From Candidatus Ozemobacteraceae bacterium (GTDB taxonomy: Bacteria > Muiribacteriota > Ozemobacteria > Ozemobacterales > Ozemobacteraceae): a stretch of 64,000 nucleotides of DNA. The stretch lies in the NCBI GenBank assembly GCA_965140445.1, contig OZ223236.1:3586498-3650497 (forward strand). The letters are read 5' to 3'. The translations under genes were made by a program, and so were the position numbers. The stretch's first letter is position 1, and each line of letters opens with the position of its first letter. Shown piece by piece: positions 7,427 to 63,918 of the stretch. Below the pieces are notes generated by a model that was not told the DNA's origin, did no database searches, and saw only the letters and a list, made by a program, of their open reading frames with translations.

Positions 7427-9379
7427 ATGTCATCCAACAAGACTTACTACATCACCACCCCCCTCTATTATGCTAATGACGAGTTGCATATAGGACACGC
7501 ATTCACAACATTGGCCGCAGACATAGCTAGCCGTTTCCAAAGATCAATGGGAAATGACGTGTTTTTCTTAACAGGTTCTGATGAACACGGGCAAAAAGTT
7601 GAACAGGCTGCAAAGAAAAGAGGCATTACTCCAATCCAGCATACCGATGAACTCGTTGCCAAATTTGAAAATCTTTGGGAAAAGCTCAACATCACCCATG
7701 ATGATTTCATTAGAACAACTCAGGATAGACATAAAGACGTTGTAATTCATATTTTAAACAAGCTTTACGAAAAAGGTGACATTTATTCATCTAACTACAG
7801 TGGCTGGTATTGCACACCATGTGAAAGATTTTGGACGGAAAAAGAAGTTCCAGAGAAAATTTGCCCTGATTGCTCAAGAGAAGTTCAGCAGATTGAAGAA
7901 AAAAGCTACTTCTTTAAAATGTCCGCCTATCAGGAAAAACTGATTGATTACATTAATAATACGCCCGGTTTTATCCGACCTGAAAACAGAAAAAATGAAG
8001 TGTTGGGCTTTTTAAAACAGCCTTTAAACGATCTTTGCATTTCCAGACCAAAATCCAGACTTGAATGGGGCATAGAACTCCCATTTGATAAAGATTTCGT
8101 CACTTATGTCTGGTTTGATGCTCTTACGAACTACATTTCAGCAGCCGGCTACAATTCTGATGCTGATAAATTTAAAAATCTCTGGCCAGCAAACTGCCAG
8201 ATCATTGGAAAAGACATTTTAACTACCCATGCAGTTTATTGGACAACAATGCTCATGGCTCTTGACCTTCCACTCCCGAAAACCATCTTTGCTCATGGCT
8301 GGTGGGTTTCAGCTGGCGGAAAAATGTCTAAATCAGTTGGAAACGTTATAAGTCCACTTGAACTTGTGGACAAATATGGACTTGATCCATTTAGATTTTA
8401 TCTTTTCCGTGAAATGGTTTTTGGCATGGATGCCAGCTTTACTGAAGAAAATTTTATCTTCAGATACAATGCTGATCTTGCTAATGACTACGGAAACCTT
8501 TGCCAAAGAACCCTGCCTTTGCTATTGAAAAATCGGGAAGGAAAATTCCATAAGGCCGCTCCCCAATTGATTCAATCAAAAGAAATCGTTCAAATGGCTG
8601 CGGAAGTGAAAAAAGATTACATTGAAGCAATGGAAAATTTCCTTTTCCACGAAGCACTGAAACGAATCTGGGATCTAATCCAGCGCTTAAATAAATATGT
8701 TGATGAAACAGCTCCATGGGCGCTTGCTAAAGCCCAGGAGTTCGATAAGCTTGATGAAGTTTTCTACACCATAGGTGAAGGAATCCGATTTTGCTCACAT
8801 CTTGTAGAGCCGTTTATGCCTGGACTTGCTCCTAAGTTTTTTGAACAAATTGGCTGGACCAAGGGCTTCATAAAACTTCCAGAACTTGAATGGGGTCAGT
8901 TAGAAGAAGGAACTGTATGTATTCAACCGACACCTTTGTTTCCAAGATTAGAAACAAAGCGCATTCAGGAGCTGAAATCCGGCAAGAAATCAACTGATAA
9001 AGCAGCTGAAAAGGCTGCTGCCAAACCTGCTAAAACTCCGGAAAACACAGAAGGAATTATCTCTTTCGATGATTTCCTTAAAACGGAACTTTGTGTTGCA
9101 AGAATTGAAACTGCTGAGAAGCATGAAAATGCAGATAAATTGTTGAAGCTTACTGTTTCAATTGGCGAAGAAACAAGAAGTCTCGTGGCTGGGATTGCAG
9201 ATTATTATTCACCAGAAGAGCTTATCGGGAAACAGGTAGTAATGGTTAAAAACCTGAAACCAGCCAAGATAAGAGGAACAGTTTCCCAGGGAATGATCCT
9301 GGCGGCGCAAACTGAGGACGGTGGATTGGCACTTGTAACTCCTGACAAACCAGCCAAAGTGGGAATAAAAGTCAAATAA
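7427..9379 (+). CDS. metG: Methionyl-tRNA synthetase with C-terminal tRNA-binding (EMAP/Trbp111-like) domain
   Basis: HIGH motif (ELHIGHAFT), KMSKS, the CPDC...CxxC zinc knuckle, and a C-terminal OB-fold tRNA-binding tail. Confidence 0.95.
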   Translation: MSSNKTYYITTPLYYANDELHIGHAFTTLAADIASRFQRSMGNDVFFLTGSDEHGQKVEQAAKKRGITPIQHTDELVAKFENLWEKLNITHDDFIRTTQDRHKDVVIHILNKLYEKGDIYSSNYSGWYCTPCERFWTEKEVPEKICPDCSREVQQIEEKSYFFKMSAYQEKLIDYINNTPGFIRPENRKNEVLGFLKQPLNDLCISRPKSRLEWGIELPFDKDFVTYVWFDALTNYISAAGYNSDADKFKNLWPANCQIIGKDILTTHAVYWTTMLMALDLPLPKTIFAHGWWVSAGGKMSKSVGNVISPLELVDKYGLDPFRFYLFREMVFGMDASFTEENFIFRYNADLANDYGNLCQRTLPLLLKNREGKFHKAAPQLIQSKEIVQMAAEVKKDYIEAMENFLFHEALKRIWDLIQRLNKYVDETAPWALAKAQEFDKLDEVFYTIGEGIRFCSHLVEPFMPGLAPKFFEQIGWTKGFIKLPELEWGQLEEGTVCIQPTPLFPRLETKRIQELKSGKKSTDKAAEKAAAKPAKTPENTEGIISFDDFLKTELCVARIETAEKHENADKLLKLTVSIGEETRSLVAGIADYYSPEELIGKQVVMVKNLKPAKIRGTVSQGMILAAQTEDGGLALVTPDKPAKVGIKVK

Positions 9380-10164
9380 TGAGAACAAGACGGATTATTG
9401 ATGTGCATGCACATCTGCAAGATGAAAAATTTCTTGATGACCAGTCTGAAGTTATACAAAGAGCTAAAGAAAGCGGTGTAGTAGCAATAATAAATGCGGG
9501 CACCTGTGTCGAAAGCTCTCGACAAGCGCTATCAATCAGTGAAAAGTATGATTCATGCTTTTCACTGATTGGAATACACCCGCACGATGCTTCAAGTTTT
9601 AATGAAAATTCTGTTGCAGAAATTTCTCAAATGCTTGAGCATAAATCGGCACTTGCTGTTGGAGAAATTGGTCTTGATTACCATTACGACTTTTCTCCGA
9701 GGGAAAAACAAAAACAGGTCTTTAAAACTCTTTGGTTGCTTGCCGCTGAAAAGCAGCTTCCAGCAATAATTCATATTAGAGAAGCTTTTGATGATTTCTT
9801 TGAAATTATAAAAAACATACCTCATCCACCAAAGGTCATGCTCCACTGCTTCTCTGGAGACTCTAAAATCGCTGCCAAAGCTGTAGAATTAGGATTTTAT
9901 TTTTCAATAGGTGGACCTTTAACCTTTAAGAATTCTCAAGAAACCAGAGATACCTTTAAAACCATTCCTATTGAAAGAATCCATCTTGAAACAGATTGCC
10001 CATATCTAGCACCAGTTCCCAAAAGGGGAAAAAGAAATGAACCGGCTTATATACAGCATACCTTTGCAGCAATGGTTCAACTTAGAGAAATGTCAGATTC
10101 AGAGCTGGAATCCCAATTAATTCAAAATTCCAGAGACTTTTTTGGTTCTAAATTGGAGATTTAA
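9379..10164 (+). CDS. tatD: TatD-family metal-dependent hydrolase/DNase
   Basis: N-terminal IDVHAHL, an internal HxH and a C-terminal ETDCPYL motif. Its start overlaps the metG stop. Confidence 0.85.
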   Translation: MRTRRIIDVHAHLQDEKFLDDQSEVIQRAKESGVVAIINAGTCVESSRQALSISEKYDSCFSLIGIHPHDASSFNENSVAEISQMLEHKSALAVGEIGLDYHYDFSPREKQKQVFKTLWLLAAEKQLPAIIHIREAFDDFFEIIKNIPHPPKVMLHCFSGDSKIAAKAVELGFYFSIGGPLTFKNSQETRDTFKTIPIERIHLETDCPYLAPVPKRGKRNEPAYIQHTFAAMVQLREMSDSELESQLIQNSRDFFGSKLEI

Positions 10165-26597: not shown

Positions 26598-27296
26598 ATG
26601 GAAACCAAGCTTTTTACATTTGCCCTTCTTTCCTACTTAATAGGGAGTATACCCACTGGGACAATAGTCTCAAAAATAAAAGGGCAAAATAGCCTTATTG
26701 AACCTGGAACTCGTTCCACAAAAATGCCAGGGGAGATATTTAAAATTCTTGGCATTCCAACTGGAATATTGGTTTCTTTATTAGATGCATTAAAGGGATT
26801 TCTGGTAGTTACCGTTCTTTTAAAGCATCTCTTTGGCGCAAATGCCGCCGACTCATGGTGGATCGTGAGTATGGGCGGCATGCTCGCAGTTATTGGGCAC
26901 TGTAACTCTGCGCTTCTTGGATTTAGAGGTGGCAGAGGACTTGCTCCAACATTTGGTGTAGCTTTTGGAATTCTCCCAATACCAGCAATACTTTCATGTA
27001 TTCTGGGAATGTCTCTGGCATTCTGGGGACTGTCAAGCAAACCAGGAGCTCTTAGTGCTGCAGGTGCCCTTCCATTGTTTTCAATTTTATGGGTATTGCT
27101 TATTAAACCAACCACTAATGTAAATTATCTTTATGTGGTCGCCTTTTTATCTTTATGGACAATGTGGGAACATCGTGATGAGTTAAAAAACTATATGGGA
27201 ATAAAAACCATCAATCCTGAAATTATTACCTCAGATGCCGATGCCGATGCCGATGCCGATGCCGATGCCGATGCCGAAATATTAGAGAAAAAATAG
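26598..27296 (+). CDS. plsY: Glycerol-3-phosphate acyltransferase PlsY with an unusual C-terminal (Asp-Ala)7 tail
   Basis: Characteristic PlsY N-terminus LSYLIGSIPTGTIVSK and a polytopic topology. The C-terminal DADADADADADADA tail is encoded by the (GATGCC)7 repeat. Confidence 0.75.
   Translation: METKLFTFALLSYLIGSIPTGTIVSKIKGQNSLIEPGTRSTKMPGEIFKILGIPTGILVSLLDALKGFLVVTVLLKHLFGANAADSWWIVSMGGMLAVIGHCNSALLGFRGGRGLAPTFGVAFGILPIPAILSCILGMSLAFWGLSSKPGALSAAGALPLFSILWVLLIKPTTNVNYLYVVAFLSLWTMWEHRDELKNYMGIKTINPEIITSDADADADADADADAEILEKK
27234..27275 (+). repeat. Perfect hexanucleotide microsatellite (GATGCC)x7, in frame at the 3' end of plsY
   Basis: Seven exact tandem copies seen directly in the sequence. 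Confidence 0.95.
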
Positions 27297-27948: not shown

Positions 27949-28401
27949 ATGAGTTTACCGGGAAAAATAATTGAAGTAAACAGCAACCTTGCTATAGTAG
28001 AAGTCAGTCCAAAACCAGAATGTACAGGGTGCCATGCATGTCAGGGTCTATTAGGTGGAGAAAAAAAGTCTTCACTAAAAAGAATTGAAGCCTTTATTGA
28101 TGATGTCGTTCCAGAGCCAGGAGACGAAGTGATTCTTGATACCAAACCAGGTGAAGGAAGCATCGCCGCACTTTTAGTCTTTGGTCTGCCAATGCTATTT
28201 TTCTTCGTGGGACTATTTCTAGGTCCTCAAGTTTCTCTTTATCTGGGCTTTTCTGCTTCAGATTCAACCAGATTAATAACGGGCTTTATTTTCATGGCGA
28301 TTTCATTTGCCATCCTGGCAGGGGTTTCTAAAACAAAATTTGCCAGAAGTATAAGCCTAAAGGTTACTAAAATAACCAAAAGTGCCAAAGAAAGTAGATA
28401 A
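27949..28401 (+). CDS. rseC: RseC/MucC-family (SoxR-reducing-system-associated) membrane protein
   Basis: N-terminal cysteine cluster CTGCHAC followed by two TM helices. Located immediately downstream of the rnf operon, as is common. Confidence 0.65.
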   Translation: MSLPGKIIEVNSNLAIVEVSPKPECTGCHACQGLLGGEKKSSLKRIEAFIDDVVPEPGDEVILDTKPGEGSIAALLVFGLPMLFFFVGLFLGPQVSLYLGFSASDSTRLITGFIFMAISFAILAGVSKTKFARSISLKVTKITKSAKESR

Positions 28402-28703
28402 AAAAAATCCCTGGATCAAAAAGCCAGGGAAAAAGTGAGAGGATCTTTTGAGAGGATACTTGAGTCATCTGGGGAGATGACATAAGATATTAAAAAGTGT
28501 TCTCCGAATCATAAAATAATTTCTTGATTAATCATGGGACAAACTTCAGTGATTTTTGCTGTGATTGTAGTTTATCTAAGGCTTTAACTATATTTTGAGT
28601 GTTTCTTTTAAAAAAATTTATAAGTTCGTTAGTATTTGCTTTATAACAGTATTTTCATACATTAACGATCCGGAAAACACATTTTTACTTTTTCAAAGAG
28701 CTA
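28402..28703 (-). ncRNA. Candidate sigma-54-dependent small RNA, paralog 1 (about 300 nt), bounded by a -24/-12 promoter and an intrinsic terminator
   Basis: Minus-strand promoter TTGGCATCGAAATTGCT (GG-N10-GC). Conserved 5' block, a variable core, a conserved 3' hairpin (gucauc-N6-gaugac) and the AUCCUCUCAAAAGAUCCUCUCAC motif. Terminator hairpin tccctgg/ccaggga followed by a U8 run. No ORF of 60 aa or more. Confidence 0.5.
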
Positions 28704-28714
28704 TTTATATTAGA

Positions 28715-28729
28715 GCAATTTCGATGCCA
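28715..28729 (-). promoter_or_regulatory. Sigma-54 (-24/-12) promoter of sRNA paralog 1
   Basis: Reverse complement reads TGGCATCGAAATTGC with a GG-N10-GC spacing. Confidence 0.55.
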
Positions 28730-28870
28730 ACTTTTCATTTTTATAAATTGATCTCCAAACCATTATAAAAAGTGATAAACTCGCAATTTTCGCCAATTTG
28801 AACTTATTATACGAATGTGCACTTTTTTTTATGGTGGATTTTAGCACACACATAAGCTTCTAATTTGACA

Positions 28871-29178
28871 AAAAAAATCCCCGGTCAAAAAGCCGGGGAC
28901 AAAGTGAGAGGATCTTTTGAGAGGATACTTGAGTCATCTGGGGAGATGACATAAGATATTAAAAAGTGCTTTCCGAACCATGTTATAAATTTTGGTGCGT
29001 TTGTTATTGTGAATAATTTGTAGCTTTTTCGTATATATTAGGTTGTTTTAGAGGATGTATTCGGTTATTTCGATTCAATAGTTATTCTGTGAATTTTGCT
29101 TTTTCGTTTATTTTGACCCAGCACTGTTAATACTGCAAACGATCCGGAAAACACATTTTTACTTTTTTCAAAGAGCTA
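28871..29178 (-). ncRNA. Candidate sigma-54-dependent small RNA, paralog 2 (about 300 nt)
   Basis: Minus-strand promoter TTGGCACGACAATTGCG, a near-perfect sigma-54 consensus. Shares the conserved 5' and 3' blocks of copy 1. Terminator hairpin tccccgg/ccgggga followed by a U-run. Confidence 0.5.
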
Positions 29179-29189
29179 CCCCTACATAC

Positions 29190-29204
29190 GCAATTGTCGT
29201 GCCA
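29190..29204 (-). promoter_or_regulatory. Sigma-54 (-24/-12) promoter of sRNA paralog 2
   Basis: Reverse complement reads TGGCACGACAATTGC, matching the consensus TGGCACG-N4-TTGC. Confidence 0.65.
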
Positions 29205-29363
29205 ACAAAATTCCTTTTCTGTTTTTGTGATGTTTTCTGCTTACAAGCCTTGTGTAGAGACGTTTCACCTGGAAACAAACAAAATAGTATGTGCTTTTTT
29301 TTACAATGTTGTATTTTCACACCCACACTTGGAAACACCTATAAATTTATAACTTACAAATCA

Positions 29364-29676
29364 AAAAAAAATCCCCGGTTTAAAAAAAGCCGGGGACAAA
29401 GTGAGAGGATCTTTTGAGAGGATTCGGGAGTCATCTCCTGAGAGATGACCAATTTATGAAAAGAGCTTTCCGGATCATGCTGTAATTTCTTCTTAACTTA
29501 TACTGTTACTTATTGTGAGGGGAGGATCGACCATACTATAGTTAGGAGAGGATGTTAAGCTATGAGCAGTAAGTCTATTGTAAGAGTATCAAATACTGTG
29601 AATAATAATGTGAACCAGTAACAACTTATACTGTAAACGACCCGGAAAACTACTTTTTACTATTTTCAAAGAGCTA
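29364..29676 (-). ncRNA. Candidate sigma-54-dependent small RNA, paralog 3 (about 310 nt)
   Basis: Minus-strand promoter CTGGCATAGGAATTGCA (GG-N10-GC). Shares the conserved 5' and 3' blocks. Terminator hairpin tccccgg/ccgggga with a longer loop, followed by a U9 run. Confidence 0.5.
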
Positions 29677-29687
29677 CTTAACTATAT

Positions 29688-29702
29688 GCAATTCCTATGC
29701 CA
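29688..29702 (-). promoter_or_regulatory. Sigma-54 (-24/-12) promoter of sRNA paralog 3
   Basis: Reverse complement reads TGGCATAGGAATTGC with a GG-N10-GC spacing. Confidence 0.55.
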
Positions 29703-29943
29703 GCTTTTTTTTATCATTTTTAGCTAATTTTAGGGCATTTCCTTTGTTAACTTTTTTCACCAGTGTTTTTTTTTCACACTCAAAAACAAGCTTCCACACC
29801 CCTATTTCAACACGACATGCATTTTTTGTCAACTACTTTAGGTTTTTTAAAAGTTCTACTTTGTTCTTTTTTTCACGTTCTCCGACGTGTGTGTTTTTTT
29901 TTCACCTTTATATTTTTTCCCCATTAGGCTATATTGCATTCAA

Positions 29944-31866
29944 ATGAAAAAGATAATCCTTTCCGCAATCAACTCAAAGCACACTCACGCTTGTCTGTCG
30001 CTGGCAACTTTAAAAGCTTATCTTGAAAAAAACACATCAGATTTAACCGCATCAATTTTTGAATTTGATTTAAACCAAAACATTGATTCCATTTTTGCTG
30101 AGCTGGTGAGAATCAAGCCTGATTTTTTAGCCTTTTCTACCTACATATGGTCCTTTGAGACCATAATAGAAATTTCTGGCGCTATTAAGTCAGCCTTTCC
30201 ACAGATGAAAATTTGCCTAGGAGGGCCCGAAGTAACATTTCAAGCCGAATCCATTTTGCAAAGATTTCCATGGATTGATTTCATAATAAGAGGCGAAGGA
30301 GAAGAAACCTTTACCGAATTGCTTCTGAGCAATTTTGAGCTTGATGATCTCCTGAAAATAGATGGTTTAAGCTTTCAAAATAATTCTAAAATATACAGCA
30401 ATAATGACAGGAAACTTATTGAAAACCTGGACGTAATACCCTCCCCTTTTGAGCTTGGCATCTATAAAAACGGGAAAGGTTACACATATTACGAAGCATC
30501 AAGGGGTTGCCCCTCTAAATGTTCCTATTGCTTAAGTTCCGTATTGGGCAAGTTGCGCAATTTTTCCATTAATAGAGTTAAAAAGGATTTGGATTGGTTT
30601 TTCAATTCGGACTATGAGCAAATAAGGTTTTCTGATAGAACTTTTAATTTTGATAAAAATAGAGCGAAAAAAATTCTTAATTACATTCTTCAAAATAACG
30701 TTCAAAAAAAGAACTTCCATTTTGAAATTCAAGCAGACATTCTGGATGAAGAAATAGTCGAACTTCTAGCAAGTGAACCGCATGGGATTTTCCATTTAGA
30801 GATTGGAATTCAAAGCTTAAACCTGAAAGCCCTTGCCGCTGTAAATAGAGCTTGCAACCCTCAAAAGCTTGAAAAAATGATTATTTTCCTTAGGGATCAC
30901 ACTAGATGTCATCTTCACCTGGATTTGCTGGGCGGTCTCCCGGAAGATACCTACCTCCAATTCAGGGAAAGTTTTAACAAGGTTTGGAATTTTAAACCTA
31001 ACTGTATTCAGGTTAGTTTAATTAAAGTGCTTCGCGGAACCCCTTTTGAAAATGAAGTAAAAACCAACAGGGTTTCCTGCATGCCAACCCCTCCTTATAC
31101 TCTCACCAGGACTCTTTGGATGTCCCCTGAGGAACTCATTAGGATTCAGGAAATTGGAAAGCTTGTAGAATCAATTCGAAACTCGGAGAGATTTACAATT
31201 TCATTGCACTACATAACTGAAAATATTTATCAAAATAATGCGATTGAATTCTTCGAAGATCTTCTTGATTATTGGTTAAAAATGTCTTTTCTTAATTTTG
31301 GAATGAATCCTCGAACCATTAAAGAGCGCCTTGTGAGCTTTTTAATCCATAAGTTTCCTGAGCATCCAAAAACTAAGGAACTGGAAACCCTTTTTGACCA
31401 TGAGCTTCAAATGAGCCTGCGATCGCCTTCAACAGAATTTTCTTCTTCCCCAGATTTCCCGGACTCCAAAATGAAGGATTATCCATTCAAAGTTCTTCCT
31501 TCATTAAAAGTAATCTGGCAAAAGCACAATATCGAAAGTCTAATCTCAGACCAGGATAAAAATATTAAGGGAAATTACTTTCCGACCTTGTATTTCTTTG
31601 AAAAAAATCCTGCCTTAAAAAACAAAACTGTGCATTTAGAGCTCCCCTTAATTGAAAAATTCACAATCAGCTCTGTTCTTAAAAAACTTTCAACCGATCA
31701 AATGGCTCGGATGTGCCTCCAACTCTACGATTGGGAAATTCTTCCAGACCATTTTGAAAAGGTGCTTGAAAACCTTTGTCAAAGAGGATTAATATATAAT
31801 CTCAATGTAAAAAGCTTTGATGAAATTAAGGACTATATTCCTGAAGAAATCCAAACACAAAGGTGA
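29944..31866 (+). CDS. B12-binding domain-containing radical SAM protein (DUF4080 C-terminal extension)
   Basis: N-terminal cobalamin-binding-like domain and a radical SAM CxxxCxxC motif (GCPSKCSYC). True start is the ATG at 29944 (MKKIILSAIN); the track ORF starts earlier, at 29887. Confidence 0.8.
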   Translation: MKKIILSAINSKHTHACLSLATLKAYLEKNTSDLTASIFEFDLNQNIDSIFAELVRIKPDFLAFSTYIWSFETIIEISGAIKSAFPQMKICLGGPEVTFQAESILQRFPWIDFIIRGEGEETFTELLLSNFELDDLLKIDGLSFQNNSKIYSNNDRKLIENLDVIPSPFELGIYKNGKGYTYYEASRGCPSKCSYCLSSVLGKLRNFSINRVKKDLDWFFNSDYEQIRFSDRTFNFDKNRAKKILNYILQNNVQKKNFHFEIQADILDEEIVELLASEPHGIFHLEIGIQSLNLKALAAVNRACNPQKLEKMIIFLRDHTRCHLHLDLLGGLPEDTYLQFRESFNKVWNFKPNCIQVSLIKVLRGTPFENEVKTNRVSCMPTPPYTLTRTLWMSPEELIRIQEIGKLVESIRNSERFTISLHYITENIYQNNAIEFFEDLLDYWLKMSFLNFGMNPRTIKERLVSFLIHKFPEHPKTKELETLFDHELQMSLRSPSTEFSSSPDFPDSKMKDYPFKVLPSLKVIWQKHNIESLISDQDKNIKGNYFPTLYFFEKNPALKNKTVHLELPLIEKFTISSVLKKLSTDQMARMCLQLYDWEILPDHFEKVLENLCQRGLIYNLNVKSFDEIKDYIPEEIQTQR

Positions 31867-51718: not shown

Positions 51719-54700
51719 ATGAGTTTTTTTGAACGAACTGTTTTTCTGTTAATTTTTTTTGCTTTAACTTTTGCCATGCCATCTAATGCACAAACACGTG
51801 AAGATTTGTGGAAAGATGTTAATAAAGCAAAAAGCAAAGGTTTGCCAAAGACAGCAATTGAGCATCTTGATAAAATTTATAAGATGGCTGTAGACGACAA
51901 AGACCTGCCAGACATCGTAAAATCGGTTTGTGAAAAAATCGTTCTTGAAGGCAACATACAAGGGAACAAGCCTGAAGAAAAAATTGTCAGACTCGAAGAA
52001 GTAATTAAAACTGCTGATGAAAGTGCAAAACCAATCTTAAAAATAGTATTAGCTAAGTGGTATTGGCATTATTACTCAAGAAATCGTTACAGATTTATGA
52101 ATAGATCCAGAACCGAAGGACTTAACGACAAAGACTTCACCACCTGGGATCTACCTAAGTTGTTTGAATATATAGGCAACCTCTATGAAAATGTTTTAAA
52201 ACAGGAAGAAGCTTTAAAAGCAATACCGATAAGCAAGCTTTATGGCTTTATTGAAAAAGGAAACCAGCCAGAAAAATTGCGCCCAACCCTTTTTGATTTC
52301 TTTGCCCACGAAGCTCTGTTTTTCTATATGGTTGATGATCAAAGCTCTGCTAAGCCAATGCGCGCATTTGAAATCGAAAGTGACTCACCAGCACTTCAAA
52401 GTGTAGATAAGTTCCTTAAATGGCGCCCTGATACAGTTGATAACACATCATGTAATTTTAGAGCTGTTGCCCTTTTCCAAAAGGTATTAAACAACGCCAA
52501 AGAATCTAATAATCTTGATGCTCTTCTGGACAATGATTTGATGAGAATCGAATGGGCCCATAGAGTAGCAGTGGGTGAAGCTGTTTCAGATTATTACCAG
52601 AAAATCCTGACCAGTTTTGCCGAAGAATACGCAAACCACCCCTACTCTGCCACTGCACTTGGGAAATTAGCACAGGAACTTGTAAAACAAAACGACCCTG
52701 TTAAAGCAATGGAAGTTTTGGAAAAAGGCTTAAGTGCTTATCCAAACTCTTATGGAGCTTCAATCTGCAAGGCAGTTAAAGCCCAGATTCTCCAGAAAAC
52801 TTTAACCCTGGAAACCGAAAGAATTCTTCTGCCAAAAGGATCTCAAGTAAGGATTTCCTATAAAAATATAGAAAATGTATATTTTAGACTGATTCCAAGA
52901 ACCGAAGATTCACTTACCGCTGATAAAAGACCATCTCCAGATAGTATTAACTGGGATGATTATGAGAAGATTCTAAAGGAGTATCCTTCCAAAGAATGGA
53001 GTGTAGCTCTTCACCCCACTAATGACTACAAAGAGAAAACTGTAATCATTGATTTACCAGACTTTGATAAAGGTCTCTATTACATTGCAGCTAGCGTTAA
53101 TTCGGACTTTAAACAATCTAACAACTGTATTAAGCTATCTCCAATTACAGTAACCAAACTTGCCATGGTTCTCAGAAAACTTGAAGGCAAAATCGAAGTA
53201 GTTATTCTTAACAGCGTTTCAGGGCAACCGGTAAAAGGAGTAAAGGTTAAGGGCCACTCATTCAATTGGGATACAGGTTGGAAAAGAATTCTATCAGCCA
53301 CTACAGACAAATTTGGAAAGGTAGAATTCCCTGGACAAAGAGGAAGCGGACTCTTCCTTGCTGACTACAAAGGTCACCTCGTTTACAAAAATTTCGACTT
53401 CTATTCTTATGAACCAAGCATCTATGGAAGCGGCGACAACGTATACTTTTTCACAGACAGAAAACTTTATAGACCAGGACAGATGCTTTATTTCAAGGGA
53501 GTTGCAGTTCACTATTCAACCAGCAACAATGATTATAAAGTTTTAAAAAATAAAAAAATCAGGGTTAGCCTGAGAGATCCGAATTATCAGGAAGTCACCG
53601 CAAAAGACTTCCAGACAAATGAATTTGGATCATTCTCTGGCACTTTTGATGCTCCATCAGATAGGCTTACCGGATCTTACCAACTAGTCTGCGAAAAAAT
53701 TTCTGGATCAACTCAAATTAAAATTGAGGAATATAAACGACCAAAATTCAAAGTTGAAATCGAAACCCCAAAAGAATCATTTCAGCTCGGAAAAAGTGTA
53801 AAAGTTCAGGGAACTGCTCTTGCCTACACTGGCGCAAAAGTTGATGGCGCAAAGGTCAAATATAGAGTAGTTAGAGAAGTGCAAATGCCCAGATGGTGCT
53901 GGTGGTATTATCCCGTTTCCAGCTCACAGGAAATTACTCATGGAGTTGCAGAAACGGATAAAGATGGGAAATTCACCATCCGTTTTACAGCCAAACCAGA
54001 CCTCTCAATATCAAGAGACACAGAGCCAGTCTTCACCTATAAAATTCATGCGGACGTCACTGATTCAAATGGCGAAACCAGATCTGCTGATCAGTTTATC
54101 AGGATTGGTTACACTTCTTTGAGCCTCAATCTAACCCTGGACGAAAAGCAATTCGCCAGAAAAGATTTTGAAATAGGAATCAAGACCTCGACTCTGGACG
54201 GAAAAGGACTTCCTGGAGCAGGAAAGATTCAGATTCATGAGCTAATTCAACCTGACAGAGCTTATCGGCAGAGCTATTTTTCAGACTATGAAAGCCGAAA
54301 AAATGATAAATCTAATCCTCGAACCTGGAAAGAAGGGAAAGTTGTAAAAGAACACAGCTTCAACAATAGCCTTGACGGCTCCTCATCTTTCAAAGTCAGT
54401 CTGCCAGTTGGCGCTTACAGGATTATTGGTCAAAGCAGAGACAAATATAATAACCCGGTTAAATCAATAAATGATTTTATCGTGATTGATCCCGAATCAG
54501 ATAAATTGGGAATCAATATTCCAAGTCTTTTCATTCCACTAAAACAAACTCTGCAACCAGGTGAAACATTTAAAGCCATTTGGGCTACGGGCTACAAACA
54601 AGGTCCTGCTTACATTGAAATAGAACATAAAAGCAAAGTCATTAAGTCTTTCTGGACAGAGAACTCTGAAACAGTGAAAACAATTGAATTGCCTATAACA

Positions 54701-57679
54701 GAGGACTTTAGAGGCGGTTTCACTGTCAGAGCATTTCATATCAAGGAAAACAAAGAATACTTCTATAACATTCGGGTTAATGTCCCATGGGAAAATAAAA
54801 AACTCCATCTTCGCTTTGCGCACATGACATCAAAGCTTCAACCTGGCCAAAAAGATACATGGAAAATCGAAATTAAAGGTGAAAACGCCGAATTTGGAGC
54901 GATAGAAATGCTGGCCGCCATGTATGATGCATCTCTAGATGCGTTTGCAGCTAATAGCTGGGCGGATTCTTTCCCGGTTTTCTATAATGATCGATCCTAT
55001 ATTCAACAGGTATATTCAAATCATGGTCAGCAGATGCAGACCTGGCGCGATAACCTGAATAGCTACTATGGCATACCTGATAGATCTTACCCCTCACTCC
55101 CACGTGAAGTTGTAAACAATTTCATGTCCTATGGATTCCCCGGAGGTCGCGATGGAATCAGGTTGATGAAATCCGGCAGAGGAATTCCTTCTCCATCGGC
55201 AATGGCTCCAAGAGCCAAAAAAATGGAAAGCATTTCAATGGCCAAAGAATCTTTTGCCGATAGCGAAATGTCTGATAGCATGGTCATGGAGGCAGCCCCT
55301 GCAGCTCCACCAGCAGATCAGGCTGCTGCAAACCAGGGCCCGGATCTTGATAAAGTGGCTGCCAGAAAAAATCTAAATGAAACAGCTTTCTTCTTCCCGC
55401 ACCTGACAGTTGATTCAGATGGAATGGTTTCTATAGAATTTACGGTTCCTGAGGCATTGACTACCTGGAAATTCCTCGGCTTCGCTCATGGAACCAAGTG
55501 TGAAGCCGGTGGCCTGATTGGTGAAACCGTAACCCAGAAAGATCTTATGGTTCAACCTAATCCCCCTAGATTTTTGCGAGAAGGCGATAGCCTTAGATTT
55601 TCAGCCAAAGTAACAAATCTCTCTGAAACAACCCAAACAGGAAAAATTAAACTTAAACTTGAAGATCCAGTTTCAGAAAAGCTAAGAACCAGCGAATTTG
55701 GACTAGATCAGGATACATTTGAATTTTCTGTTCCAGCTGGTGAATCCAAAGCGTTTGGATGGGTTCTTAAAGTTCCTGAAACCCCGGGACTTGTTAAATA
55801 TACCGTAGTGGGTGCAACCAATAAACTTTCTGATGGCGAAGAAGGATTGTTACCAATTCTTTCCAGAAGAATCTTTGTAACAGAGTCCCTTCCTTTACCT
55901 ATAATTGGACCTAAGAAAAAGAACTTCACCTTCCAAAAGCTTCTCGATTCCAAAAAGTCTGATACTCTGGTAAACCAGGGTTTAACGGTAGAGGTAACAT
56001 CTAATCCCGCATGGTATGCAGTTCAAGCTCTGCCGTATCTCATGGAATTCCCACACGAATGTTCTGAGCAAATCTTCAACCGAATTTATGCAAATCAGAT
56101 TGCCGGCTTTATTGCAAACTCAGATCCAAAAATCAAAAAAGTTTTTGAAACATGGAAAGCAGATGAAGCCAACGGGGGAAAAGCTCTATACTCCAACCTG
56201 GAGAAAAATGAACATTTAAAATCGGTAACCCTGTTAGAAACCCCATGGGTTCTTGACGCAAAATCAGAGAATGAGCAAAAGCACAGAATCGGTGTTTTGT
56301 TTGATAGAAACCGCATTGATAATGAACTATCAAGAGCAATGAAAAAGCTGGCAAATGCACAACTAGGTGATGGCAGTTTCTCATGGTTCCCAGGTGGCAG
56401 ACCTAACTCATTCATTACCCTTTATATAATGACAGGCTTCGGAAGGATGAGGCACCTTGGGGTTGATATAGATGTCAGCATGGCCCTTAAATCCCTTAAC
56501 CATCTTGATAATTGGATAGACGAATACTACAGAGAAATAATCAGACATTCTGGTTACGCCTCACGTGTGAATATTAATCCAACCGTCGCCCTATATCTAT
56601 ATGGAAGAAGCTTCTTCCTGAAAGAAAGACCAATACCTTCTTCAAGTAAAAAAGCTGTTGAATTCTTCCTTGATGAGGCAAGAGAAAAATGGCTGAAAGT
56701 AAATTCCAGACTTGCCCAAGGTCAAATAGCGCTTGCCCTTAAACGCTTTGGAGATAAATCAGTTCCGGCAGCTATAGTTGATAGTATTAGAGAAAGAAGT
56801 GTTACCGACGAAGAACTTGGTATGTTCTGGCGGGAGAATGAGCTTTCATTCTGGTGGTATCGCGCTGAGATTGAAACCCAGGCCGTTATGATAGAACTGT
56901 TTGATGAGGTTGCAAAAGATGAAAAAGCTGTAGAAAGCTGTAAGGTATGGCTTCTCAAGCAAAAGCAAACTCAAAACTGGAAAACCACTAAAGCTACGGC
57001 TGATGCTATATACGCTCTGTTACTAAAAGGCGCTAACCTACTTGCATCAGATAAACTTGTTAAGGTTTCCCTTGGCGGCACAGAAGTTAAACCTGAAAAG
57101 GTGGAGGCTGGCACAGGTTACTATCAAAAGATCTATGCGCCCTCTGAAGTAAAGGCAGAAATGGGCAATATTACACTTACCAAAGAAGACAAAGGCGTTG
57201 CATGGGGCGCGGTTCACTGGCAGTATCTTGAAGACATGACCAAGGTAACTCCTCATGAAACAAATCTTAAACTCAAAAAGACCATTTTTGTAAAAAAGGA
57301 TACTGAGAAAGGTCCTACTATTTCGCCAGTTAACGGGCCACTGAAAATTGGTGATCTGGTCGTTATAAGAATTGAGTTAAGAACAGACAGAGACATGGAA
57401 TTCATCCACATGAAAGATCAGCGCGGTAGTGGTATGGAGCCTGTTAATGTTATTTCACGATACAAGTATCAGGATGGGTTAGCTTATTACGAAGCAACTA
57501 AAGATACAGCAACCCATTTCTACATGGATTACCTACCCAAAGGCGTATACGTGTTTGAATATGAAACAAGAATTCAACACGCCGGACAATATCAAACCGG
57601 TATGGCTGAAATTCAATGCATGTATGCTCCAGAGTTTAACAGTCACTCACAAAGTTTCTCTCTGGATGTTAGACAATAG
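51719..57679 (+). CDS. Bacterial alpha-2-macroglobulin family protein (1986 aa) with thioester-like CSEQ motif
   Basis: Signal peptide, an MG-domain beta-rich N-terminal two-thirds, FPHECSEQ at the thioester position, and an alpha-helical TED followed by a receptor-binding-like C-terminus. Confidence 0.8.
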   Translation: MSFFERTVFLLIFFALTFAMPSNAQTREDLWKDVNKAKSKGLPKTAIEHLDKIYKMAVDDKDLPDIVKSVCEKIVLEGNIQGNKPEEKIVRLEEVIKTADESAKPILKIVLAKWYWHYYSRNRYRFMNRSRTEGLNDKDFTTWDLPKLFEYIGNLYENVLKQEEALKAIPISKLYGFIEKGNQPEKLRPTLFDFFAHEALFFYMVDDQSSAKPMRAFEIESDSPALQSVDKFLKWRPDTVDNTSCNFRAVALFQKVLNNAKESNNLDALLDNDLMRIEWAHRVAVGEAVSDYYQKILTSFAEEYANHPYSATALGKLAQELVKQNDPVKAMEVLEKGLSAYPNSYGASICKAVKAQILQKTLTLETERILLPKGSQVRISYKNIENVYFRLIPRTEDSLTADKRPSPDSINWDDYEKILKEYPSKEWSVALHPTNDYKEKTVIIDLPDFDKGLYYIAASVNSDFKQSNNCIKLSPITVTKLAMVLRKLEGKIEVVILNSVSGQPVKGVKVKGHSFNWDTGWKRILSATTDKFGKVEFPGQRGSGLFLADYKGHLVYKNFDFYSYEPSIYGSGDNVYFFTDRKLYRPGQMLYFKGVAVHYSTSNNDYKVLKNKKIRVSLRDPNYQEVTAKDFQTNEFGSFSGTFDAPSDRLTGSYQLVCEKISGSTQIKIEEYKRPKFKVEIETPKESFQLGKSVKVQGTALAYTGAKVDGAKVKYRVVREVQMPRWCWWYYPVSSSQEITHGVAETDKDGKFTIRFTAKPDLSISRDTEPVFTYKIHADVTDSNGETRSADQFIRIGYTSLSLNLTLDEKQFARKDFEIGIKTSTLDGKGLPGAGKIQIHELIQPDRAYRQSYFSDYESRKNDKSNPRTWKEGKVVKEHSFNNSLDGSSSFKVSLPVGAYRIIGQSRDKYNNPVKSINDFIVIDPESDKLGINIPSLFIPLKQTLQPGETFKAIWATGYKQGPAYIEIEHKSKVIKSFWTENSETVKTIELPITEDFRGGFTVRAFHIKENKEYFYNIRVNVPWENKKLHLRFAHMTSKLQPGQKDTWKIEIKGENAEFGAIEMLAAMYDASLDAFAANSWADSFPVFYNDRSYIQQVYSNHGQQMQTWRDNLNSYYGIPDRSYPSLPREVVNNFMSYGFPGGRDGIRLMKSGRGIPSPSAMAPRAKKMESISMAKESFADSEMSDSMVMEAAPAAPPADQAAANQGPDLDKVAARKNLNETAFFFPHLTVDSDGMVSIEFTVPEALTTWKFLGFAHGTKCEAGGLIGETVTQKDLMVQPNPPRFLREGDSLRFSAKVTNLSETTQTGKIKLKLEDPVSEKLRTSEFGLDQDTFEFSVPAGESKAFGWVLKVPETPGLVKYTVVGATNKLSDGEEGLLPILSRRIFVTESLPLPIIGPKKKNFTFQKLLDSKKSDTLVNQGLTVEVTSNPAWYAVQALPYLMEFPHECSEQIFNRIYANQIAGFIANSDPKIKKVFETWKADEANGGKALYSNLEKNEHLKSVTLLETPWVLDAKSENEQKHRIGVLFDRNRIDNELSRAMKKLANAQLGDGSFSWFPGGRPNSFITLYIMTGFGRMRHLGVDIDVSMALKSLNHLDNWIDEYYREIIRHSGYASRVNINPTVALYLYGRSFFLKERPIPSSSKKAVEFFLDEAREKWLKVNSRLAQGQIALALKRFGDKSVPAAIVDSIRERSVTDEELGMFWRENELSFWWYRAEIETQAVMIELFDEVAKDEKAVESCKVWLLKQKQTQNWKTTKATADAIYALLLKGANLLASDKLVKVSLGGTEVKPEKVEAGTGYYQKIYAPSEVKAEMGNITLTKEDKGVAWGAVHWQYLEDMTKVTPHETNLKLKKTIFVKKDTEKGPTISPVNGPLKIGDLVVIRIELRTDRDMEFIHMKDQRGSGMEPVNVISRYKYQDGLAYYEATKDTATHFYMDYLPKGVYVFEYETRIQHAGQYQTGMAEIQCMYAPEFNSHSQSFSLDVRQ

Positions 57680-62216: not shown

Positions 62217-63707
62217 CTACTTTTTAGAAGATCTTTTTGCACTATCAATTTGTATCTTTTTTAGTTCTTCCTTGGAAATAGGTACACAAAATCTATTGTA
62301 TTCTCTTAAAGAGCCACATTGATTCGCAAACTCCAGATCAATGGTTTCTTTTTCCCAATTATAGCTTCCCTCTGCCTTGCCGAAAGCCTTAATAAACTTT
62401 AGCCAATGTTCTCCAGCAGCACCGATTTCAGCTCCTTTTGAACTAGAAATTGCAGCTACGGAAAGAATGCCAAAAGCATGATACCAAGGACCTATTTTAT
62501 CTCCAGTATGATCACCAGCTGGCCTAAGGTTTCGCAATTTTTTAACAATATCGCTATGCGGACGAAGCTTTTTCCTTAGCAAAAAGGCTTCTTTCATTTT
62601 TCCCTGTTTATTCCGTGCAAACATAGGGGTTAAACCATCGCTCCTCCCATTTTTTGCTGTTTCTTTTAAAACAGCATGGGCAGTTAATACAGCCAGTGGA
62701 TAGTTTCCTTTACATATGTCCAATGACTTTTTCATTACCTGAAAAGGCAACAAACTATCATCAGGAGAGTTTAAAATTTCTTGCCGAAGGGCTGCTTCCG
62801 TTTTCTCGGTTAGAGCTGCATAAATATTGGTCTTTCGATTTTCTGAAGGGATTTCATCCATTGCCATAAGCCTGGCAAGATCTCCAGTATCATCTTTCAA
62901 AAAGCCTTTAACCAGACCATCGTCAATATGTTTTTGTGTTTCATTTGGAACAACAAGCCTATTGTGAACACCAGGATAAGCCTTAACTGTTTTAACTAAA
63001 TTTCCAACACATGCTTTTATCCATCTTTCCCAGATAATTGGCGAAACACGCTTGTCCCAAACTCCTCGAAAATCCCTAAATTCCTCAATATCCTCAAGGG
63101 TCTTCGGGATATCTTTCTTTGAAATTGCAGCGCCCTGTAATTTTTCAATGGCCAAAACCGCAATCTTAGAAAAAATTTCTTTATAAATTGGCCATTTTGC
63201 TTTTAGATCGGTTTTATTTTTAAAAATGATTCTAAAATGGTATGCGTATTTTCCAACAATCCTGCCGTATTCTATAGAATCAGAACTACTAGAATGTTGC
63301 CAAAGTTTTTTTATTTCGAAACCTTTATCATCCTTGATTACTTCTAATTTCAATCCTTCACTCTTGTCATCATTAAAAAAATCCCAGAACCTTTCAACGG
63401 CATATTCTTCTCTTGCCGTGTGATAAGTAGGAAGAAATAAATGTATTTGAATGTGATCCTTGGCTTTTCCGCCAAAGTAAACGACTTCTAAAAGAGTATG
63501 AGACCTATGGGTAGTCTGAAAATTAGGTTTAATAGCAGATTCAAAGCCTTCAAACTCATCGGGAATGTTTAGATCTGCTATATCAATGTCATGCCCGGGA
63601 ATTGTGCCTGATTTATGAAATTGAGACCCGGCATAAAGCAAACTGTTACACAAAATCAGCAGGGTCAGGAAAATCCAGATTTTCCCCTTAAATAAATGTA
63701 TATACAT
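62217..63707 (-). CDS. Hypothetical secreted protein
   Basis: Signal peptide, 496 aa; I recognise no family. Confidence 0.4.
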   Translation of the reverse strand: MYIHLFKGKIWIFLTLLILCNSLLYAGSQFHKSGTIPGHDIDIADLNIPDEFEGFESAIKPNFQTTHRSHTLLEVVYFGGKAKDHIQIHLFLPTYHTAREEYAVERFWDFFNDDKSEGLKLEVIKDDKGFEIKKLWQHSSSSDSIEYGRIVGKYAYHFRIIFKNKTDLKAKWPIYKEIFSKIAVLAIEKLQGAAISKKDIPKTLEDIEEFRDFRGVWDKRVSPIIWERWIKACVGNLVKTVKAYPGVHNRLVVPNETQKHIDDGLVKGFLKDDTGDLARLMAMDEIPSENRKTNIYAALTEKTEAALRQEILNSPDDSLLPFQVMKKSLDICKGNYPLAVLTAHAVLKETAKNGRSDGLTPMFARNKQGKMKEAFLLRKKLRPHSDIVKKLRNLRPAGDHTGDKIGPWYHAFGILSVAAISSSKGAEIGAAGEHWLKFIKAFGKAEGSYNWEKETIDLEFANQCGSLREYNRFCVPISKEELKKIQIDSAKRSSKK

Positions 63708-63918
63708 TTAGATCCTCCAAATTTTTTACAGCTATCTGTAGTAAAATCATACACTAAAAATTAAGCGCTCGTTTAACCCTATTTTAAACAAGGCTTAATA
63801 TGATAATTTTTATAAATGAATTGATTTTAACCTATTCATTTTTGTAAAATTTAGTTAACATTAAAAGTGAAAGAAGAAAAGGAGGCTGTTGTACAAATCA
63901 TTCTAAAATGGAGGCACA

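Follow-up and report, generated by a model that had tools for sequence, protein, structure and literature searches.

Three tandem candidate sigma-54-type small RNA genes and their RNA family in Candidatus Riflebacteria

Introduction

What fills an intergenic gap of about 1.5 kb in which no protein appears to be encoded? The question arises in a 64-kb window (the whole stretch of DNA analysed, 64,000 nucleotides) from a Candidatus Ozemobacteraceae bacterium. Here rseC, with its stop codon at 28401, and a radical SAM gene, with its ATG at 29944, are separated by three head-to-tail modules on the minus strand, all lying within 28400-29702. On sequence grounds, the three modules are very probably bona fide genes for small regulatory RNAs (sRNAs) of the sigma-54 type. 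They represent a previously undescribed RNA family, which belongs to the known class of multicopy regulatory sRNAs controlled by an activator and sigma-54. The family stands out in three respects: a near-invariant sequence block throughout the phylum, a triplication at this locus whose cores have diverged, and minimal copies in phages.

Three tandem modules

A repeat finder reports the modules as a direct repeat present three times, with spacings of 469 and 497 bp. A three-way alignment of the copies has a mean column identity of 73%, and searches with a profile hidden Markov model, together with pattern scans, find exactly three copies in the window. The first-pass annotation had described three tandem modules of about 470-500 bp on the minus strand, without a credible open reading frame (ORF) among them. 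All of the elements it listed are found, and an ORF scan of the gap yields no credible ORF: none exceeds 72 aa, and the one of that length is not common to the copies. The three predicted RNAs are as follows.

29363-29676, minus strand: sRNA copy A, predicted 314 nt, from a start 12 nt past the -12 GC to the end of a U9 run
28870-29178, minus strand: sRNA copy B, predicted 309 nt
28400-28703, minus strand: sRNA copy C, predicted 304 nt, converging with rseC

Copy A is the copy nearest the radical SAM gene. It is likely the ortholog of the single copy found in relatives such as the contigs L004 and L007, because its 3' module resembles theirs. At the other end of the array, the U-run of copy C stops one base from the rseC stop codon.

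Each copy is preceded by a promoter of the -24/-12 class.

29688-29702, minus strand: sigma-54-type promoter of copy A, TGGCATAGGAATTGC
29190-29204, minus strand: sigma-54-type promoter of copy B, TGGCACGACAATTGC
28715-28729, minus strand: sigma-54-type promoter of copy C, TGGCATCGAAATTGC

The pattern TGGCAY-N5-TTGC has exactly three matches in the window, all on the minus strand and one for each copy. The expectation in shuffled sequence is 0.35, and three matches were reached in 0 of 100 shuffles. The exactly spaced promoter that had been assigned to each copy is therefore present, and these are the only such matches in 64 kb. The predicted 5' ends (28703, 29178 and 29676) lie 12 nt past the -12 GC. 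They had been proposed in the first-pass annotation, and sequence conservation begins exactly there, with a box for which the family consensus is YAGYUCWUUGAWAA.

29663-29676, minus strand: 5' box of copy A, UAGCUCUUUGAAAA
29163-29178: 5' box of copy B
28689-28703: 5' box of copy C

The 3' end of each copy consists of a GC-rich hairpin followed by a run of eight or nine U.

29363-29397, minus strand: terminator of copy A, UCCCCGG-loop-CCGGGGA, then U9
28870-28900, minus strand: terminator of copy B
28400-28431, minus strand: terminator of copy C

Read on the plus strand, the same hairpin comes after an A-run and has no T-run behind it. The claim of an intrinsic terminator in the minus orientation only is thus upheld for all three copies. 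A simple terminator scanner called copy B only.

Directly before the terminator lies the most conserved part of the RNA, here called the seed.

29398-29423, minus strand: seed of copy A, AUCCUCUCAAAAGAUCCUCUCACUUU, predicted mostly unpaired apart from its spacer
28901-28926, minus strand: seed of copy B
28432-28457, minus strand: seed of copy C

All three copies share the 26-mer ATCCTCTCAAAAGATCCTCTCACTTT without a change, and the rest of the window has no match to it even with 3 mismatches allowed. It contains two copies of AUCCUCUCA at a fixed spacing, with the spacer AAAAGAU between them. The two CCUCUC motifs have a predicted unpaired probability of 0.74 and 0.81.

Between the conserved ends lies a core of about 150 nt that is specific to each paralog.

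29478-29637, minus strand: paralog-specific core of copy A

Among the three cores identity is only about 53%, in agreement with the conserved 5' and 3' blocks around a divergent core that had been noted in the window alone. Comparison with relatives refines this picture of a "variable middle". Between close orthologous pairs the cores are 78-96% identical, and between more distant pairs 49-72%; the untranscribed upstream DNA of the same pairs is 42-85% identical (mostly 45-75%). The core is variable among paralogs and conserved among orthologs. Because its conservation among orthologs exceeds that of the upstream DNA while the paralogs agree at only about 53%, the core is probably functional and differs between paralogs.

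Some additional CU-rich sequences are confined to single copies. The core of copy A has CAUCCUCUCC at 29545-29554 and GAUCCUCCCCUCAC at 29515-29528, neither of which is in copy B or C, and copy B has one CAUCCUCUAAAAC.

RNA structure and covariation

Single-sequence folds of the three copies agree on a helix of about 22 bp (P2), a hairpin (P3), an unpaired CU-rich stretch and the terminator. In P2 the stretch past the 5' box pairs with the one that precedes a U/A-rich linker. The fold z-scores of the three copies range from -2.1 to -3.0.

29638-29650, minus strand: 5' strand of helix P2 in copy A, GUUUUCCGGGUCG, pairing with 29465-29477
29465-29477, minus strand: 3' strand of helix P2 in copy A, UGAUCCGGAAAGC
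29140-29152 with 28968-28980: helix P2 in copy B
28666-28678 with 28499-28511: helix P2 in copy C
29430-29449, minus strand: hairpin P3 in copy A, GUCAUCUC-UCAG-GAGAUGAC
28933-28950: hairpin P3 in copy B
28464-28481: hairpin P3 in copy C, GUCAUCU-CCCC-AGAUGAC

Evidence for these helices is provided by compensatory changes among homologues. Covariation was measured within two subfamilies on plain MAFFT alignments, one of 25 full-length homologues and one of 16 members of a short subfamily. A single global alignment of core-excised constructs from all subfamilies placed the P2 strands out of register, so that RNAalifold recovered the terminator only, and an alignment of the 3' module was misregistered for P3 and the terminator.

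On the 25 homologues RNAalifold recovers P2, P3 and the terminator, with 98.2% of cells paired. There are 9 pairs with double changes, compared with 1.9 ± 1.2 in shuffles (reached in 0 of 500), and sliding the partners by 1-3 columns lowers pairing to 25-63%. In P2 all 12 of 12 pairs are 100% paired, and 4 of them have double changes. Double changes also occur in 4 of the 6 pairs of P3, a hairpin that is absent from some relatives. In the short subfamily, P2 covaries at 5 of 10 pairs, and 6 pairs covary overall (0 of 500 shuffles). The terminator stems vary in sequence among relatives yet stay complementary.

Many of the pairs are U-G, which is valid on the minus strand only. The structure is specific to that strand because such pairs are frequent. 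The proposal of an RNA gene on the minus strand thus gains from the wider family: homologues throughout the phylum keep the promoter, the terminator and the helices, the last with compensatory changes.

A further helix, P1, may form between the 5' box (UCUUU) and the AAAGA of the seed spacer UCAAAAGA. RNAalifold pairs the two in the short subfamily, and the predicted probability is 0.86, 0.73 and 0.49 across the three window copies. Since the pairing is invariant, covariation neither supports nor contradicts it. Two relatives (L048 and L053) have an extra hairpin ahead of the 5' box, from which it can be argued that the box acts at the RNA level.

The same covariation bears on another possible reading of the modules, namely as genes for small proteins. 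A frame of 30-38 aa runs through P3, the seed and the terminator (MSSPQMTQVSSQKILSL...) and occurs in similar form in all three window copies (28367-28483, 28860-28952 and 29354-29452, minus strand). It has no Shine-Dalgarno sequence and traverses the terminator hairpin, and indels of 1 nt between P3 and the seed (ACTCAAGTATCC, ACTTCAAGTATCC, ACTAAGTATCC) shift the frame of the invariant block. Many homologues are without an ATG, and their variation tracks base pairing, as in the covariation of P3, rather than codons. With its frame-shifting indels and missing ATGs, the small-protein reading was rejected; it is the least plausible of those considered and scarcely tenable.

A family across the phylum

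How widely is the RNA distributed? An exact look-up of the window RseC protein in a contig index gave no match, and homologues of the radical SAM protein were used instead. The closest of these are from metagenome-assembled genomes (MAGs) of Candidatus Riflebacteria, Rifleibacteriota or Ozemobacteraceae. Riflebacteria are uncultivated, and are common in anaerobic digesters, groundwater and guts.

All three copies recur in a near-identical contig (L001). In L002, where the neighbouring protein is only 50% identical, the same gap holds two copies; L003 and L004 have one each, and L006 (42% identity) has a version of 167 nt. In all five contigs the block of 22-26 nt is unchanged and the helices have compensatory substitutions.

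With the pattern TCCTCTCANNNNATCCTCTCAC, a scan of one genome for each species returned 67 stretches. In 64 of the 67 the 22-nt core is identical and the exact AAAG spacer is followed by a terminator; the remaining 3 are chance matches. For all but six a promoter match stands 105-390 nt upstream; of these six, four are too near a contig end for a promoter to be seen. About 44 assemblies have the RNA, almost all of them under the label Riflebacteria, and two loci are found in 20. A metagenome scan adds 64 more contigs, with 65 of 66 matches canonical and identical in the 22-nt core. A profile search of about 1 Mb of collected DNA finds 146 copies, at 1-3 per contig. Three copies per contig occur only in the lineage of the window, and seven contigs have two.

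Among genome-derived copies with a canonical seed, the promoter element is found for 67 of 73. The promoter-to-seed distance is 105-390 nt among the 67 members analysed, which are genome-derived copies all selected for having a promoter match, and in most of them the 5' box begins about 11-14 nt past the -12 GC.

Predicted lengths in the family range from 140 to 421 nt. The RNA had been described at first as about 300 nt and roughly three times longer than its closest analogues. The length stands for the window copies, whereas its singularity does not: about 300 nt is not unprecedented for a sigma-54 sRNA. Because members differ so much in length, the conserved unit is the set of 5' box, closing helix, 3' seed and terminator rather than any given size.

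The copies occupy two syntenic positions. Locus 1 (about 40 loci) lies between rseC and the radical SAM gene, with the RNA converging on the former and diverging from the latter. Locus 2 holds the short subfamily of 212-231 nt, which diverges from an Hsp33 gene and converges on the gene for a protein dependent on flavin adenine dinucleotide (FAD). Examples are L015, L026, L047, L072 and 12 other loci. At both positions the RNA is always a stand-alone gene that converges on its downstream gene. Both loci also adjoin redox-related genes: Rnf/RseC at locus 1, and the redox chaperone Hsp33 at locus 2.

The constant neighbourhood of locus 1 could suggest that the RNAs act in cis or as antisense regulators of flanking genes, either through read-through of copy C, whose terminator abuts the rseC stop codon, into rseC, or through divergent control of the DUF4080 radical SAM gene. 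This is quite unlikely. Every copy ends in a strong terminator, the second locus with Hsp33 and the FAD-dependent protein is unrelated, the family also occurs in phage genomes, and nothing in the neighbouring genes is complementary to the invariant single-stranded sequence. A cis-regulatory leader was likewise rejected, each RNA being terminated and converging on the gene downstream.

A dispersed repeat, including a miniature inverted-repeat transposable element, is a further candidate that was ruled out, by the 1-3 copies per contig, the two syntenic loci and the lack of a match in plasmid or reference phage collections. The first-pass annotation had named a repeat scattered without promoter and terminator among the outcomes that would overturn it; genomes hold instead one or two syntenic loci with both elements kept.

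Several members depart from the general pattern. Some MAGs with the RNA are labelled otherwise than Riflebacteria: L014 and L060 (Avigastranaerophilus), L043 and L051 (Erysipelotrichia), and L056 and L070 (Methylomirabilis). Riflebacteria-type neighbour genes are recognised in L014, L043, L060 and L070, and none in L056; L051 is placed in the short subfamily, its flanks not individually confirmed. The probable cause is mis-binning or mislabelling.

In rare paralogs the seed is changed to AUUCUCUCAAAAAAUCCUCUCACUUAUU, to ...CCUCUCUCUUGUU or to a single AAUCCUCUCACUCC. They are found at L053:3898-4212 (plus strand), L075:3255-3337 (plus strand), L096:7125-7209 (minus strand) and L040:1751-2100 (plus strand). 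In L040 the variant directly precedes the radical SAM gene and has the same direction.

In the closest relatives, palindromic repeats of about 40 nt (CAACACATGCG..GCC..GGATGGC..CGTGTTG) follow the sRNA terminators (L002:8390-8560 and 9260-9395; L003:1-185, minus strand), and none was seen in the window gap. By sequence they look like intergenic repeats of the repetitive extragenic palindromic (REP) type.

Candidate activator sites

Sigma-54-type promoters are paired here with upstream palindromes. Tandem palindromes TGTG-N6-9-CACA at -70 to -100 are found by a strict pattern at 35 of 65 loci, and there are 1.15 palindromes per locus compared with 0.015 in shuffles. They are clearest in relatives, as pairs of GTGCGA-W3-TCGCAC, and are candidate activator sites. 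The corresponding sequences in the window are given below.

29746-29781, minus strand: upstream activator-like sequence of copy A, GAGTGTGAAAAAAAAACACTGGTGAAAAAAGTTAAC, a degenerate form of the tandem GTGYGA-W3-TCRCAC palindromes of relatives
29286-29324, minus strand: upstream activator-like sequence of copy B, GGGTGTGAAAATACAACATTGTAAAAAAAAGCACATAC
28815-28852, minus strand: upstream activator-like sequence of copy C, TGTGTGTGCTAAAATCCACCATAAAAAAAAGTGCACAT

A scan of the window for further activator sites gave no match to the strict palindrome pattern. Enhancer-binding proteins with GAFTGA and Sigma54_activat domains are encoded on the related contigs L006, L046, L102 and L109, and in relatives GAFTGA proteins are not consistently near the RNA.

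Between the upstream region of copy A and the start of the radical SAM gene (29860-29905, minus strand) are GTG-A7-9-CAC-like sequences, GGTGAAAAAAAAACACACACGTCGGAGAACGTGAAAAAAAGAAC, whose position is the same in L002, L003 and L004. Further activator sites are one possibility, and a region controlling the divergent radical SAM gene is another.

Phage copies

The family is also represented in viruses. Scans of IMG/VR find the 19-mer CCTCTCAAAAGATCCTCTC in 13 viral contigs, and in 12 of the 13 a GC hairpin and U-run stand 4-10 nt behind it. These 12 contigs have sigma-70-like elements ahead of the motif (TTGACA-N17-TATCTT, or an extended -10 TGCTATAYT), placed for a start 5-8 nt before it, and they are without the sigma-54 promoter, P2 and core. 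All that host and phage copies have in common is (AU)CCUCUCAAAAGAUCCUCUC.

L140:5924-5946, minus strand: phage element, IMG/VR (this and the next two are examples from L138-L150)
L139:1140-1162, minus strand: phage element, IMG/VR
L143:1795-1813, minus strand: phage element, IMG/VR

In L140 the module lies immediately upstream of the genes for the small and large terminase subunits and diverges from them, and five related contigs have the same terminase arrangement by similarity of the flanks. The module of L139 adjoins a neck protein gene, and that of L138 a predicted tRNA.

On this comparison, (AU)CCUCUCAAAAGAUCCUCUC plus terminator would be a self-sufficient unit. Since phages carry only the 19-nt dual motif and a terminator, the 3' module is pointed to as the active part of the host RNA. 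The phage versions look like minimal mimics or decoys of the host sRNA.

The presence of the 19-nt core and terminator in 12 viral contigs, one of them (L138) beside a predicted tRNA, raises the possibility that the modules are remnants of a mobile element or prophage, or an attachment site, with the 3' block as att core or repeat terminus. Such an origin is very improbable. Host copies are syntenic, number 1-3 per locus, and have their own sigma-54 promoter and covarying helices, and none of about 130 host loci contains an inserted integrase or prophage. The phage module stands beside terminase or neck genes; it has a different terminator and promoter-like elements of its own. Among the neighbouring ORFs, a subset of which was scanned against PHROGs, none within about 3 kb of the phage modules was noted as an integrase, and plasmid and reference phage collections have no match.

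Novelty and known systems

Is the family related to a described RNA? At the gathering threshold, Rfam 15 has 0 matches in the window, as expected by the first-pass annotation for a new family, and 0 in nine related loci except for one tRNA. The best sub-threshold match scores 27.6 bits against a cut-off of 46. Sub-threshold matches are to short sRNAs, among them mmgR/suhB (RF00519), the Betaproteobacteria toxic sRNA (RF02278) and ncS025 (RF02869), at 20-28 bits against cut-offs of 41-50. These three RNAs carry anti-Shine-Dalgarno motifs. They resemble the present family in the order of hairpin, CU-rich motif ('CCUCCUCCC' in the anti-Shine-Dalgarno sRNAs) and terminator, and differ in motif sequence, size and taxon; the likeness is one of composition and layout only. 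Literature searches found no paper on small RNAs in Riflebacteria, none with the seed string, none relevantly joining Riflebacteria and sigma-54, and nothing on post-transcriptional regulation in Riflebacteria.

The Qrr1-5 RNAs of Vibrio are multicopy sRNAs that depend on sigma-54 and LuxO and have a conserved seed common to all (PMC3730234). As in Qrr, the genes described here are paralogous, and each has its own sigma-54-type promoter, candidate upstream activator sites and intrinsic terminator. An absolutely conserved stretch, which in Qrr is the target-binding region, is common to the paralogs, and the differences lie outside it. In contrast to Qrr, the present RNAs are 140-421 nt long rather than about 100 nt, have a long-range closing helix around a variable core, and carry the seed at the 3' end. 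Their upstream sites are GTGYGA-W3-TCRCAC-like and not LuxO sites, their copies are tandem rather than dispersed, and they belong to another phylum. There is no homology in sequence or structure (no Rfam match).

A second parallel is LhrC1-5 of Listeria, which are multicopy, controlled by the two-component system LisRK, and equipped with redundant CU-rich target-binding sites (PMC4132741). Both families are multicopy and have CU-rich motifs in single-stranded or loop regions (with purine-rich targets in LhrC), with the terminator directly after. They are not homologous, and here AUCCUCUCA occurs twice at fixed spacing in a block that is invariant across the phylum. Of the five LhrC genes, four are in tandem; LhrC is about 110 nt long and its motif is UCCC. 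LhrC is not known to depend on sigma-54.

In Pseudomonas, the promoters PcrcZ and PcrcY are activated by CbrB (PMC5113210). CrcZ and CrcY share with the present RNAs a stand-alone terminator and repeated short motifs. They differ in that AANAANAA is present here only 0-1 times per RNA, with no Rfam match, and in that the repeated motif is pyrimidine-rich and occurs only about twice. CrcZ (about 400 nt) and CrcY are long sigma-54-dependent sRNAs with paralogs, which act as Hfq/Crc decoys.

ArcZ-type sRNAs have a conserved 3' module of seed plus terminator, a variable 5' part, and processing by RNase E. The present family is similar in the conservation of its 3' module, the variable upstream part and the U/A-rich linker before the module, and here the 3' module can stand alone, as phages encode it by itself. 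In contrast, the 5' box and P2 are also conserved here, and the promoter class differs.

Proposed mechanism

How might the RNAs act? Three independently transcribed, tandem-duplicated genes would each give rise to a structured, trans-acting regulatory sRNA. An enhancer-binding protein would bind the GTGYGA-W3-TCRCAC-like palindromes, about 70-120 bp upstream, and engage sigma-54 RNA polymerase, and transcription would run from the 5' box to the intrinsic terminator. In this way one activator and sigma-54 could induce every copy at both loci at once. The 3' module would be the effector. Its G-free CU-rich motifs would pair with purine-rich, Shine-Dalgarno-like sites in several mRNAs, and pairing would control the translation or stability of these mRNAs. 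Multicopy sRNAs that are CU-rich or depend on sigma-54 are known to act so, LhrC through its redundant CU-rich sites (PMC4132741) and Qrr through its conserved seed (PMC3730234). The 5' box, P2 and core probably modulate stability, processing or access to the seed, and perhaps provide paralog-specific targets; seed access may be tuned by this upstream domain because the 5' box can mask the seed spacer. The triplication could serve dosage, or diversify the cores under one signal.

The accessible pyrimidine-rich seed predicted beside the terminator is as in base-pairing CU-rich sRNAs. A free CU-rich stretch directly before a U-tailed terminator is the standard layout of base-pairing sRNAs. Whether the RNAs act mainly by pairing through their CU motifs is a matter on which belief and doubt are evenly balanced. 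For the whole reading, sigma-54 sRNA genes together with pairing of the CU motifs, a compromise judgement is that it is rather more credible than not.

Targets were sought with RNAduplex in 1507 translation-initiation regions from about 1 Mb of fragmentary Riflebacteria DNA, followed by clustering into families. The best gene family has a median of -15.1 kcal/mol, compared with a background of -8.8, and is driven by the Shine-Dalgarno sequence GGAGGAUC. In the window, complements of seed k-mers give only self matches and one match of 9 bp, at the Shine-Dalgarno sequence of the ORF at 62217-63707. The initiation region of the enhancer-binding protein gene in L006 has no special complementarity to the seed.

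Two weak leads emerge. A family of 340 aa in relatives (MKNKMVAVL...) has the best median predicted duplex. The window ORF at 62217-63707 (minus strand, 496 aa, no Pfam family) has GGAGGAUCU at about 63708-63725, which complements the seed stretch AGAUCCUCU.

Several observations weigh against the proposed mechanism. Start sites, sigma-54 dependence and any processing are read from the DNA letters. The activator-like sites of the window copies are recognisable yet degenerate, and no GAFTGA activator gene lies in the 64-kb window. P1 is without covariation support and has a probability of about 0 in members with a UCAUUGA box. No convincing conserved target is found among the 1507 initiation regions of the fragmentary sample. 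A typical seed needs 6-12 nt. Here the whole stretch of 19-22 nt, AAAAGAU spacer and all, stays invariant throughout the phylum and in phages, and a scan of both strands of the genome and metagenome collections found no perfectly complementary site. For an invariant element of 19-22 nt without a complement, a protein partner is at least as good an explanation as base pairing.

The main rival to base pairing is accordingly a decoy that sequesters a protein, as CsrB/RsmZ or CrcZ do. The two AUCCUCUCA motifs would bind a conserved RNA-binding protein, probably dimeric, or a component of the ribosome, and both the sRNAs and the minimal phage versions would titrate this partner. The invariance of the element in the phylum and in 12 phage contigs, the missing complement and the missing mRNA target all suit a decoy, as do the extra CU-rich motifs in some cores. 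Known decoys, however, have 6-22 motifs, and here only two per RNA are invariant. The motifs of known decoys are also absent: AANAANAA occurs 0-1 times per RNA and GGA about twice. Searches by tblastn for Hfq, CsrA and CspA found none in the 1 Mb, a fragmentary sample and hence uninformative, and the position of the CU-rich stretch right before a U-tailed terminator is that of a base-pairing sRNA. On balance a decoy is unlikely.

Two particular kinds of decoy were rejected by motif counts. For a CrcZ-type decoy, AANAANAA is present 1, 1 and 0 times in the window copies, with a family mean of 0.18 and at least 3 in 1 of 67 members. For a CsrB/RsmZ-type decoy, GGA occurs 3 times in each window copy with a family mean of 1.8, and the RNAs are G-poor (17% G).

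A bolder version holds that (AU)CCUCUCAAAAGAUCCUCUC is the recognition site of a phylum-wide post-transcriptional master regulator, which the host RNAs titrate or guide and of which phages have captured the bare element. This is speculative and rather doubtful. If it were true, the partner would be a dimeric RNA-binding protein or a component related to the ribosome or the Shine-Dalgarno sequence. Phages would express the bare element from constitutive promoters and, with it as a minimal decoy or mimic, gain control of the host circuit. The result would be a new global system like Csr or Crc, with a phage-encoded counter-RNA.

The locus can be viewed as a regulatory module made up of a candidate activator site, a sigma-54-type promoter, a structured sRNA with 22 near-invariant nucleotides, and two conserved genomic positions. 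The lineage-specific triplication with diverged cores is part of its interest. The family could seed a new Rfam entry and serve as a marker for the phylum. It also offers a handle for target prediction in complete MAGs and for the mining of digester metatranscriptomes. The minimal phage versions are a natural experiment indicating the active part, and they suggest viral manipulation of the circuit.

Neighbouring genes

The genes around the gap comprise an Rnf cluster, PlsY, RseC, the B12-binding radical SAM protein with DUF4080, a zinc ribbon protein and YgjP. The PlsY homologue has an unusual C-terminus, an (Asp-Ala)6 repeat (DADADADADADA; window 27230-27296). Farther along, window 51719-57679 encodes a bacterial alpha-2-macroglobulin-like protein of 1986 aa with MG2, A2M and bMG10 domains and a TPR segment.

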